Source: Octopus vulgaris
Taxonomy: Eukaryota
Length of the DNA: 64,000 bases
NCBI GenBank assembly: GCA_951406725.2
Contig: OX597815.1
Span: 75,454,001-75,518,000, forward strand
Direction: 5' to 3'
In this document: positions 47,111-50,546 of the stretch, one piece after another
Position numbering within the stretch: position 1 is the first letter of the stretch
How the letters are laid out: every line of letters starts with the position of its first letter
Notes under the pieces: generated by a model
Told to the model about the DNA's origin: nothing
The model's database searches: none
The model's input: only the letters and a program-made list of their open reading frames with translations
Made by a program: the position numbers and the translations under genes

Positions 47111-47455
47111 TGTTTGTAGCCACTATAACATGACTGTCCATTCGAATGGATTTTACTGCAATTTTTTAACCCCCAAGAGGACATCTCCTCTAGCTGGTTA
47201 ACGATGCTCACACAGCTACATCAGATATATTACGATCAGGGGCGCGAACCCCCACCGCCTTCTAGCAACAAAACCAGCTGGCCAGCCTGGTTTCGGGCTA
47301 TTTCTGTCTCTCTCTCTTCAGTACTGAACACCTCGTCTGCTAGAGACAGCAGTAGCTCGCTCCTGCTCGCAATATATATAATTTCAAGCGACACATAATC
47401 GCTGATTTTGCAACAAGCAAAAATGCTAGTTCTAAAATTTCTCTAAGAGATCAAC
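47111..47455 (-). mobile_element. Retrozyme-like hammerhead repeat unit, copy 1 (inverted)
   Basis: Reverse-complement match to 47458-47772 and 50263-50546 in a different permutation; HHR relic at 47274-47327 with CTGAAGA and GAAAC intact. Confidence 0.7.
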
Positions 47456-47457
47456 AA

Positions 47458-47772
47458 GGTGTCCAGTATTGAAGAGATGTAGAAATAGCCAGAAACCAAG
47501 CTGGTCCTGTCGTTAGAAGGTCGTAAAGGTTCACTCCCCTTCTCGCAATATATTGGATGCAGCTGTGCATCGTTAACCAGCTAGGGGAGATATCCTCTTA
47601 TCCTCTCGGGGTTAAAAAATCGCACTAAATTCCGTTCGAACGGACAGCCATGTTGAAGTGGCTACAAACAGTACTTGTTAGTACAACTACTGTGTTGATC
47701 TCTTAAAGAGATTTTAAAAGTAACATTTTTGCGTGTTGAAAAATCAGCGAGCTACTGCCATCTCTACCAGAC
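47458..47772 (+). mobile_element. Retrozyme-like hammerhead repeat unit, copy 2
   Basis: HHR relic TTGAAGA...GAAACcaagctgGTC at 47463-47506; its end catctctaccagac matches the start of copy 3. Confidence 0.7.
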
Positions 47773-50262
47773 ACGTGTCAGGCTTTTTTGGTTGTTGTGA
47801 GTTTAAGTTTGTTAATGCTTCATTGTTATTTTTACAATTGTTGGAATTGAACTGTGATTTATTTGTTAATTGTTATTTTCGCCCTTGGGGGCAGAAAATT
47901 CTTAAATTTTGAAATATTTTTGTAAAAGCGACAACTGTGATTAGAACTGCGATTTTTACCCTTTGCAGGATAAAAATTAGTTTTTGTCAAAAATTATTTT
48001 TGGCTAATTTCATTCCTTTTTGAAGGAATTTGTTTACTATGAAAAATTTTCACGTCATGGATTACAATTTGTTTTCGAACGAAGGTTTCCCAGACTTGGA
48101 AAAGGCTAAAAATAATGAAAATTTAACGCAAGTACAAAAGGAAAAACGAAGTTTTTCGGCCACGGTTGGCGGCAACATGATAACAATGGAAGTCACAATG
48201 GCAAAACTTTTTAAATATAGGAACCTTGTCAAAAAAAAAAAAAAGGAAGTGATATAAAACTACTCCCTTGTCAAGAAGTTTTACAGAATATTGCGGCAAA
48301 AACTATAGTACACAAAACGTACAGTATGAAAGAAAAGAGAATTATTACATGTAAAAGTGAGGCGATAGAAAAATGCCTGTCGCCAATCTGGAACAGAATA
48401 ATTTACGTCGGCCGTGAAAGAAGGCTCAATTCGCCGATGAAAAAACGGCAAAGGATTTATCTACAATGACCTTAAAAAATGAAGAGGTGATATTACTGCC
48501 GACGTATATGGGCAGACGGACCGCTAAAATTAAAGTGGAAGAAATTCTGGCAGGTTTCGACGTTATATGGATAACGGCAGCCATTACGAGCATTCTGAAA
48601 ATGAAAAACAAAAAAGGAAATAGAGAACTGGAAAGGTCAGTCCCTCGAGATGGTCGTACAGGCCAAACCTGAAGTTTATATAGGCGAGGGGCTAAGCGTA
48701 AGGATCGGAGTAGAAGGACGTAGGCCGCGTTGCTTTAAATGCGGCGAGAAGGGTCGATGTTAACTCAGACTGTAAAGCAAAGAAGAACGAAACCCACAAA
48801 ACGCGGAAGAGAAAAAAAGCAACCAGCAAAACAATCAAAAGTTATACAAGAACCCAAGGAAACAAGAGGCAACAATACAAACCACAGAAGGTGACGAAAT
48901 GAAGTTTACCACAGTTAAATCCCCCAAAAAGAAAGATTCCTCATCCCATACAAAGAAAATATCCAAAGCAAATGCAGACACACACGAAACCCAACCCCAG
49001 ACCACCCCTTGTTAAAACCCATTTCCCATTCCCACCTCAAGACGCAAAACAAAATTATTTCTTTTAATGACAATAATAAGGTGCCCAGACGACATCAATG
49101 ATGTTAGCAAAGAGATGGGCGGCCAAAGTTTTAGGGTCAGTCCAGGGGTTACACCACAGAAGAAAAAGGATCGGGGGAAGCTGAATTCGTGCAGCCCCTC
49201 AAACTAAAAATGTAAATACCATTTTATTATGGAAATTAAGTTAGGGTGTATAAATGCGTGTAGCCTAGGGTTGAACTGGAAACAAACTTGTCTCTTGACG
49301 ACCTTAGGTCACTAGATATAGATGTATGTATTGTATCGTAGTCTAAGCTGTGTGGGCTACAAGCGTTCTCGTCCCTTCTAAATGGCTACGAGAAATGGTG
49401 AGGGAGTGAGGTCGTGTGGTCTTATTGAAGGAAAACCTGGACGTGCAGGCAAGTGCAGTCTTTCTGGACACAGAAGGTAGGCTGGTCGTTTTGAATGTAA
49501 CACATGTAAGTAAATAGTCCTTCAGGTTGGTAGCTGTCTACGCACCAAAACAAAGTAGACAGGCTGGCTGTTACCGGGAACTTCTTAGTGACGTCAAGAA
49601 CTCTAGTTGTACGAGGAGACTTTAACTCTATTCTCGATGCACGGGCGGTTAGTGCTGGCTCAACCGATAGCAAGAGAAGCCCGGGCCTCAAAAGAATTCT
49701 GTAATCTAGTAGACCGTTATAGACTGGATGAACCGCTGGTTCCACAGTAAACATGGACTAATAACGACGGTTCACTCAGATTCTATATAGATAGGAATTT
49801 CGTTAGGGATACAGATAGGAATACGTTTAGTTGTCCACGCTTTTGTTGACAAAGGAAGGTAAGGCGTGTTTCTTGTGCACAGTTGCAGTACTGAAAGAAT
49901 GTATATGGAAATCTAGAATGACGGGAAGATTCATCTCCAGCCCTGGCTTGCTATACTACTTCAGATATCATCTGAAAAGCAAGATAGGGCTGGAGAAAGA
50001 CACCTGTCGCGAAGTGTATATGGGAAAAGATAGAAGGGTATGGACAGAAAGTTGGAGGTGAATGACCCTGCTTAATCTCAACCATAGAAAAGTAGTACGG
50101 TATAGCCGGTGGACTTCACGGCCAAGGTTTAAAATTTTTTATTTAGATTTAAATACATCATCGTATTTTTAAAACTCATTTATGAACCCATGAACACTTT
50201 TTGTTTGTGATGTCCTGTATTGTCCTCTCTATGTCTGATAAATATTATCACAATAAAGAATA
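47773..50262 (+). mobile_element. Decayed, internally deleted Tx1/L1-like LINE
   Basis: ORF1 remnant with zinc knuckle RPRCFKCGEKG (~48720). APE endonuclease remnants LGCINACSL, FRLVAVYAP, VRGDFNSILD and TWTN...YIDR (49230-49830). ORF2-like C-terminus near 49860-50060, AATAAA at 50252, and a 14 bp TSD. Confidence 0.8.
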
Positions 50263-50546
50263 CATCTCTAGCAGACGTGGTGTCCAGCACTGAAGAGAGG
50301 TAGAAACACCTCTAAACCAAGCTGGTCTGTTGGTCCCGTTGCCAGAAGGTGGTAGGGGTACGCTCCCCAGTTCGCAATATATCGGAAGCAGCTGTGCATC
50401 GTTAACTAGCTAGAGGCGAAGTCTTCTTGGGGTTAAAAACTCGCAGTAAAGTCCGTTTGAACGGACAGCCATGTTGAAGTGGCTACAAACATTACCCGTT
50501 AGTACACCTACTGCGTTGATCTCTTAGAGAGATTTTAGAACTAGCA
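50263..50546 (+). mobile_element. Retrozyme-like hammerhead repeat unit, copy 3
   Basis: Collinear with copy 2; ends at (TA)n. Confidence 0.72.
50284..50333 (+). ncRNA. Type I hammerhead ribozyme with one core substitution
   Basis: ccagca-CTGAAGA-gaggt agaaac acctc-TAAAC-caagctg-GTC-tgttgg. All three stems pair; G12 is T here but G in copies 1 and 2. Confidence 0.75.

Follow-up and report, generated by a model that had tools for sequence, protein, structure and literature searches.

A candidate hammerhead retrozyme of Octopus vulgaris and a LINE that inserts at its predicted snRNA-type start site

A stretch of 64,000 nucleotides of the Octopus vulgaris genome (contig OX597815.1, positions 75,454,001 to 75,518,000; below, the window) contains three copies of a short repeat with hammerhead ribozyme motifs, one of them inverted, and a long interspersed nuclear element (LINE) between the other two. 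How does such a repeat move, and why does the LINE lie exactly between two of its units? An initial annotation had treated the LINE as a mere interruption. Instead, it is a site-specific element whose relatives repeatedly insert at the same position of the unit. The block is probably a decayed insertion of a 359-bp retrozyme that was later split by this LINE at the predicted start of a promoter of the type found upstream of the U1 and U2 small nuclear RNA (snRNA) genes. A broader reading, which we hold tentatively and give somewhat less than an even chance, is that a still-active LINE clade finds the U1/U2 promoter complex, inserts at the transcription start (+1) and parasitises hammerhead retrozymes that have captured this promoter, using the promoter on its 5' side and the ribozyme on its 3' side.

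We searched the genome (2.8 Gb, 227 contigs) for relatives of the LINE and of the repeat, the latter being called family A and similar repeats families B, C and so on. All fractions refer to the top-scoring matches of each search, near-copies included, and are not genome-wide. Close relatives of the LINE were collected with its 3' end alone as the query (786 candidates, 40 scored) and their flanks were counted by hand. A hammerhead repeat follows directly in 27 of the 40, the window LINE being one of them: 13 lie at position 1 of the family A unit (query included), eight in family C, five in B and one in F, those in B, C and F abutting the base of the extended stem I of the hammerhead. The other copies abut the head of another LINE (four), are off target (seven) or have no assignable flank (two). 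The wider clade was collected with the C-terminus of open reading frame 2 (ORF2), which gave 15862 candidates, of which 150 were scored. Open frames of 1134-1148 aa are common among these 150 matches, and some of the matches belong to tandem arrays of 5.3 kb. The 3' flanks of 90 of the 150 were classified, 78 being assigned and 12 not assignable. Hammerhead repeats abut 48 of the 78 ends (41 by motif, by a search that fires on 42 of 5000 random windows, and seven by similarity), and form 16 sequence clusters. The remaining ends lie at U2 (three), U1 (one), LINE heads (five), two recurrent targets named Y (seven) and X (two), and other sequences (12, including one damaged family C unit). LINEs are classed as target-specific when more than 20% of their flanks are of one target type (PMC4494074), and both 27/40 and 48/78 exceed this value.

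At the snRNA genes the LINE end is followed directly by complete U2 (Rfam model positions 1-192) or U1 (1-166), that is, insertion is before base 1, and the first 14 bases of U2 are duplicated. Target duplications flanking the insertions are 13-19 bp long. In L057, a LINE copy 5'-truncated to 536 bp has a 16-bp duplication and private variants of the target are repeated on both sides, which by the test used for Tx1-Mar (PMC4494074) identifies an independent site-specific insertion. Copies that hit U2 and copies that hit family G are 99.2-99.7% identical over 1.15 kb. One LINE subfamily inserts at families G, I, J and P, and each of G, I and J is a target of two subfamilies. The LINE clade is site-specific.

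Adjacent LINEs and units could also have arisen by hitch-hiking, if one LINE-containing unit had been amplified as a composite with units as its terminal repeats. Many LINE copies with both ends present and with internal deletions would fit such amplification, as would downstream units that end at positions 234 or 292, two preferred ends of family A; the inverted arrangement in L119 is ambiguous. However, there are 5'-truncated copies with duplications of their own, one of them with private variants on both sides; LINEs also follow one another tail-to-head without an intervening unit, other insertions are off target or at U1 and U2, and the 16 target clusters are spread over the LINE tree. Hitch-hiking is largely refuted by L057, L065, L068 and L223 together with the U2 insertions, and we regard it as highly improbable, while some secondary hitch-hiking may occur.

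The targets share a short upstream motif. ATCAG(T/C) is found 57-59 bp upstream of base 1 in five types of U1/U2 upstream regions. Upstream of the LINE insertion point it is exact in 10 of 11 repeat families, at -58 to -64: at -58/-59 in eight families (A, G, H, I, J, N, O and P), at -61 in B and at -64 in C. Family K has a variant of the motif with the best profile score at -59. The motif is absent from the same interval of all nine controls (two family D loci, three U6 genes, targets X and Y, two off-target sites), and its chance rate is 42 in 20000. Family D contains the same ATCTCTAG word as family A without the motif, and none of 11 such loci has the LINE, a small sample and a weak control. 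In family A the motif occupies unit positions 301-306, just past both preferred 3' ends (234 and 292), so that only copying across the unit junction restores the motif. From these positions we infer that unit position 1 would be the start site of a U1/U2-type promoter situated in the end of the preceding unit. Insertion of the LINE at snRNA-type start sites is predicted with good confidence, whereas it is about an even bet whether the LINE is guided by the promoter complex or only by sequence.

Several observations weigh against this reading. Apart from the restriction of all fractions to top-scoring matches, the motif is only six bases long and was noticed post hoc, the repeat families are related and hence not independent, and in B and C the motif is off by two and five bases, respectively. 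Three U6 upstream regions lack it, and therefore its identity with a SNAPc site is not established. In older LINE subfamilies the target tracks the subfamily (16 changes versus 25.8 in shuffled data, 0 of 200 shuffles), which fits sequence recognition too. The young subfamily with 1148-aa frames hits the recurrent target Y, which has neither hammerhead nor motif (7/78), and target X (2/78) and the 12 other ends likewise fall outside the hammerhead/snRNA pattern. Insertions at X, at Y and at the off-target sites show that the motif is not needed for every insertion of the clade.

Target-specific LINEs are usually held to read DNA sequence. Site specificity by sequence alone would mean that a short ATC-rich word is recognised by the endonuclease of each subfamily, with read-through RNA of a master copy annealing to matching DNA, and that the promoter only helps copies that have landed there, being transcribed, to multiply. 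Indeed, off-target insertions mostly begin with ATC and TC-rich sequence, target labels cluster by LINE subfamily, and the LINE has no poly(A) tail; it is also reported that the endonuclease mainly sets target choice, which co-transcription can strengthen (PMC4494074). On the other hand, near-identical copies are found in U2 and in families G and I, which share only approximately ATCG followed by GG. Family D has ATCTCTAG with no motif and no LINE in its 11 loci, and short words are very common in 2.8 Gb, yet most LINE ends are at these repeats. Recognition by sequence alone appears rather unlikely to us. Near-identical LINE copies at unrelated sequences that have only an upstream element in common point to guidance by a host factor. 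A precedent outside LINEs is yeast Ty3, a long terminal repeat (LTR) element with host-factor-guided insertion at start sites of RNA polymerase III genes.

If the promoter reading holds, the LINE endonuclease would likely be guided to snRNA-type starts by the promoter-bound complex or by open DNA, with a short ATC-like preference, and would nick 0-4 bp before +1, yielding the 13-19 bp duplication. Insertion at +1 would place the LINE under the host promoter and keep the whole snRNA or ribozyme downstream, and a downstream ribozyme could also trim the read-through RNA from the LINE 3' end. One retroelement would then live off another, in what would be the first case of a LINE guided by a promoter to snRNA starts of RNA polymerase II. 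The LINE marks a candidate +1 in 11 retrozyme families, which makes transcription and the regain of the promoter after each jump testable, and intact young LINE copies exist that can be used in assays.

The U6 genes and the two recurrent non-hammerhead targets have features of their own. The upstream regions of the U6 genes L431, L433, L438 and L440 combine an octamer-like word at around -75 to -80 with a TATA box at around -30 and lack the ATCAG motif. Target Y (L312, L313, L319, L391, L394-L397, L405, L409) has a downstream region that resembles the 5' end of a related LINE and an upstream region with an octamer-like word and no ATCAG at -59. Target X (L356, L385, and L360 with L422 and L423) is recurrent and AT-rich and has no hammerhead or Rfam match.

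Intact relatives of the window LINE encode an ORF1 with a CCHC knuckle and an ORF2 of approximately 1130 aa with the Pfam domain order APE-RT-zf-RVT. The nearest solved structure to the ORF2 homologue P0002 is human L1 ORF2p (E 3e-50), R2 scoring 4e-24, and the best named homologue of the reverse transcriptase (RT) is GAB1597330.1 of Argonauta hians (58-64% identical). The homologue searches returned generic names only and no named Tx1 reference. The LINE is of the L1/Tx1 type, and its architecture and behaviour make it likely that it belongs to the Tx1 clade. A reading of L058 as a 5'-truncated copy was dropped, as the head of this copy is present but diverged. In L067 (G000:C22:41717000-41726000, minus strand, 5513-2071) a different RT frame with an N-terminal zinc-finger-like motif lies between the LINE ORF1 and the 3' end; we take this frame to be R2/NeSL-like, and it is probably a nested insertion.

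The octopus LINEs resemble the Tx1-clade elements Keno (in U2), Tx1 (in Tx1D), Tx1-Mar and Kibi/Koshi (PMC4494074, PMC4640811) in the APE-type endonuclease, the multicopy target, the tandem insertions around a duplication of about 16 bp, and in having both snRNA genes and mobile elements as targets. However, Keno and Utopia insert before base 39 of U2 and split the gene (PMC4640811), whereas the octopus clade inserts before base 1 of both U2 and U1, leaving the gene whole, and at the equivalent site of hammerhead repeats. Insertion at +1 with a duplication, the snRNA remaining whole, is a strategy distinct from that of Keno and Utopia. The catalogued Tx1-type targets also include U5 and satellites listed without positions, so overlap with the octopus clade is possible. 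R2 of the 28S ribosomal DNA likewise relies on the promoter of its target, and differs in having a restriction-like endonuclease and inserting inside the gene (PMC4494074). The open-access literature searched (Repbase, the original Keno paper and supplements being outside this scope) contained no description of a LINE with hammerhead repeats or snRNA +1 as its target.

The block in the window consists of the following features.

46960..47107, no strand: (TACA)n/(TA)n microsatellite, left flank
47111..47455, minus: copy 1, the inverted 5' piece, unit positions 252 to 359 and then 1 to about 233
47274..47327, minus: hammerhead of copy 1, triplet now GCC, stem II with a 4-nt insertion
47401..47406, minus: ATCAGC of copy 1, at -59 relative to unit position 1, a predicted proximal promoter element of the U1/U2 type
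47457..47759, plus: copy 2, unit positions 15 to 308, then a 42-bp deletion, then on to 359
47463..47512, plus: hammerhead of copy 2, C3 changed to U, 3' arm of stem I lost by an 8-nt deletion
47743..47748, plus: ATCAGC of copy 2, shifted from -59 to -17 by the 42-bp deletion
47760..47772, plus: target-site duplication of the LINE, upstream copy, unit positions 1-13 with one mismatch
47773..50262, plus: internally deleted site-specific LINE with intact 5' end, relic of the CCHC-type ORF1 and no poly(A) tail
49235..49845, plus: ORF2 codons approximately 2-216, frameshifted relic of the AP (apurinic/apyrimidinic) endonuclease
49846..50020, plus: C-terminal ORF2 codons, approximately 1050-1110
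50263..50276, plus: target-site duplication, downstream copy; 50264 is unit position 1 and the predicted transcription start
50264..50547, plus: copy 3, unit positions 1 to 284
50284..50333, plus: hammerhead of copy 3, GAAA changed to UAAA; cleavage would fall after 50327
50548..50668, no strand: (TA)n/(TATG)n microsatellite, right flank

Much of the initial annotation of this block stands. The three related non-coding copies are 75-80% identical to each other and each is about 91% identical to the family A consensus. Copy 1 is indeed on the minus strand, head-to-head with copy 2, and crosses the unit junction; its outer end, at about 233, is the preferred 234 end of family A. With the LINE taken out, the end of copy 2 continues into the start of copy 3; the LINE is flanked by a 13-14 bp target duplication, and the block is embedded in TA-type repeats, (TACA)n/(TA)n flanks being present. 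The hammerheads are damaged in different ways as claimed (GUC to GCC in copy 1, C3 to U and loss of the stem I 3' arm in copy 2, GAAA to UAAA in copy 3), stem II pairs cleanly in copy 3 only, and the GUC ends at 50327. The claimed unit of about 317 bp does not hold: the family A unit is 359 bp, and 317 corresponds to copy 2 after its 42-bp internal deletion. The promoter of copy 2 is predicted to be dead, its motif having been displaced by this deletion. In the LINE, ORF2 codons of approximately 217-1049 are deleted, with the junction at 49845/49846. The shape of the block, an inverted piece ending at about 233 and a sense run ending at 284, is the pattern of a Penelope-like insertion.

Family A gave 1590 first-look candidates with copy 3 as the query (40 scored) and 1685 with a second query from another part of the unit. 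Its majority sequence of 359 bp was derived from 61 segments of 30 loci. Units run from 359 directly to 1, with up to 2.5 units per run and no coding frame; the GC content is 48%, and the circular consensus folds to 68% paired. Families B and C (3457 and 1539 candidates) have the same two-end, inverted structure, the length of B, about 335-360 bp, being approximate since its consensus is incomplete. The suggestion that family K units are near-identical was dropped, the one pair compared having 89.6% identity.

The majority core of family A is CUGAAGA/GAAA/GUC, a type I hammerhead with a stem I of 6 bp that additional pairs extend as far as unit position 1, a stem II of 4 bp with a bulge and a near-palindromic stem III. 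The canonical consensus derived earlier from the three copies thus holds for the core, and differs from the family in stem I and loop III and in the bulged stem II. The ribozyme would cleave after unit position 64. The core is intact in 18 of 78 distinct copies spanning the hammerhead, 16 of which keep at least five of the six stem I pairs, and in none of the three window copies. Rfam, proposed as a check of the annotation, did not bear it out. The scan of window positions 44000-54000 gave no hammerhead, the matches being microsatellite-driven, mostly to microRNA models and all below the cut-off. Copy 3 had no hammerhead match, and a core-intact copy from outside the window matched Hammerhead_HH9 with 12.2 bits (E 1.8, cut-off 52). 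Families A, B and C are absent from the 20 RF00163 loci examined. The hammerhead identity therefore rests on motif and pairing and not on Rfam; the HH9 alignment places core and stems of the core-intact copy as the motif-based assignment does.

Family C has the canonical core in none of 34 copies and carries U3 with A8, a known hammerhead covariation (PMC4209133; PMC3088659). In a separate scan of the same wider-clade loci, with two letters allowed at each of core positions 3 and 8, 42 of 43 LINE-adjacent hammerheads have a base pair between these positions (C-G 18, U-A 15, U-G 9). Cleavage is reported for only one of nine predicted frog retrozymes (preprint 10.64898/2026.07.22.740005). Two families were seen among RF00163 matches. 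Family D (L235-L250) passes or nears the Rfam cut-off; its ATCTCTAG word precedes the ribozyme by about 22 bp, and the motif at -59 is absent; the second family (L232, L233, L236, L245) has a long stem II.

Family A is very probably a non-LTR retrozyme, itself a known class of element. It shares with the metazoan non-LTR retrozymes (PMC7229834; preprint 10.64898/2026.07.22.740005) a short tandem non-coding unit (359 bp here, 350-390 bp in mussel), a single type I hammerhead in each unit, dispersed copies in the thousands and Penelope-like elements in the genome. It is unlike them in the 16 LINE-adjacent clusters, the U1/U2-type motif in 10 of 11 families, the two fixed ends, the dedicated LINE, and a GC content of 48% in family A versus the <45% stated for the class. 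Newt satellite 2 is also a hammerhead tandem repeat with a reported snRNA-type promoter (PMC2220036); it belongs to a different phylum, and the passage on it in PMC2220036 mentions no targeting LINE. If the promoter of family A is real, the newt result is extended to a mollusc. In the giant squid, 235 Rfam hammerhead matches are reported (PMC6962438). The open-access literature searched, a scope outside Repbase and supplements, contained no report of an octopus or cephalopod retrozyme.

The ends of the insertions indicate how the repeat may be copied. Among 50 distinct family A loci, 27 have the 3' end at unit positions 278-301 and 10 at 228-240, that is, 37 of 50 end in two windows that cover 37 of 359 bases, about a tenth of the unit. 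The first query, which stops at 284, favours the 278-301 cluster; the second search, which is less biased, has 11 of its 21 ends inside the two windows. These preferred ends centre near 234 and 292, while 5' starts are scattered. An inverted 5' piece is present in 19 of the 50 loci, 11 of which pair an outer end near 234 with one near 292, corresponding to the one-sided tail of Penelope-like elements (PMC8557442). TA or CA repeats commonly border the insertions. Both preferred ends have the same following context, CTT and then GTT, which may be what a Penelope-like endonuclease resolves. An interpretation of 5' starts near 292 as one turn of a circle was dropped, since such starts also occur in loci ending at 234.

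Penelope-like elements are described as having truncations, partial tandems, an inverted piece and a one-sided tail (PMC8557442). Family A shows the fixed 3' end, 5' truncation, inversion, one-sided tail and microsatellite flanks, and families B and C follow the same pattern. Neptune-type elements (PMC8557442, PMC4209133) correspond in the fixed 3' end, 5' truncation, partial tandems, inversion, one-end extension and microsatellite flanks, but differ from family A, whose unit is non-coding and whose extension is about 58 bp versus 30-40. Neptune-like elements with intact 781-aa frames of RT and GIY-YIG and a Cys-rich linker are abundant in the genome. It is likely that family A is copied by Penelope-like machinery. 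A point against this is that none of 32 GIY-YIG loci checked (of 6136 candidates) holds an autonomous Penelope-like element sharing sequence with units A, B or C. Of the initial annotation, the idea of a type I hammerhead retrozyme mobilised by Penelope-like machinery finds support in the multi-copy tandem 359-bp non-coding unit, the 18 intact cores and the Penelope-type structure. The dispersed end points that it expected from a circular template are not seen. Young Neptune-like elements (L211-L216, L220), with intact 781-aa frames and near-identical terminal repeats, carry a further frame of 250-480 aa upstream and, past the stop codon, repeats of about 93 bp in tandem.

The same structure would arise if the 359-bp unit served an autonomous Penelope-like element as its pseudo-LTR, most loci being 5'-truncated remnants of that element. 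Truncated Penelope-like insertions do look alike, and frog retrozymes are reported to be homologous to pseudo-LTRs (preprint 10.64898/2026.07.22.740005). Family A units do lie beside Penelope-like protein fragments in L135 and L140. However, there is no shared Penelope-like frame beside the 50 family A loci other than these two, and in L135 the unit is separated from the frame by a CA repeat. Moreover, units run directly from 359 to 1 for up to 2.5 non-coding units, and the hammerhead has a full extended stem I, as against minimal forms in pseudo-LTRs. We consider a pseudo-LTR origin improbable.

Another possibility is reverse transcription of a monomeric circular RNA from random entry points. 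Copies do continue without a break past cleavage site and unit junction, 68% of the circular consensus is paired in its fold, and mussel retrozymes of 350-390 bp give circles (PMC7229834). However, with 37 of 50 3' ends in two windows the entry points are fixed, which refutes the random version, and an uncleaved tandem transcript would yield the same DNA. This reading is accordingly quite improbable. The fixed ends speak neither for nor against a circle read from a fixed start, a template that we give, by analogy, about an even chance.

Taking the preferred reading of family A as a retrozyme copied by Penelope-like machinery, the promoter in one unit (motif at 301-306) would drive transcription from position 1 of the next. 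The hammerhead would cut after position 64 and release unit-length RNA, which may circularise, and a Penelope-like RT/GIY-YIG enzyme would copy the RNA into TA or CA repeats. A new copy would gain a promoter only if copying crosses the unit junction, and this would explain the tandem, permuted appearance of the insertions.

Two further features of the window lie outside the block. Positions 13305-13601 contain a GC-rich tandem repeat of 9 bp in 33 copies, unusual among the AT-rich microsatellites there. Positions 53009-53536 contain short frames that we take, from the resemblance of a motif, to be a relic of an RTE-type LINE RT.

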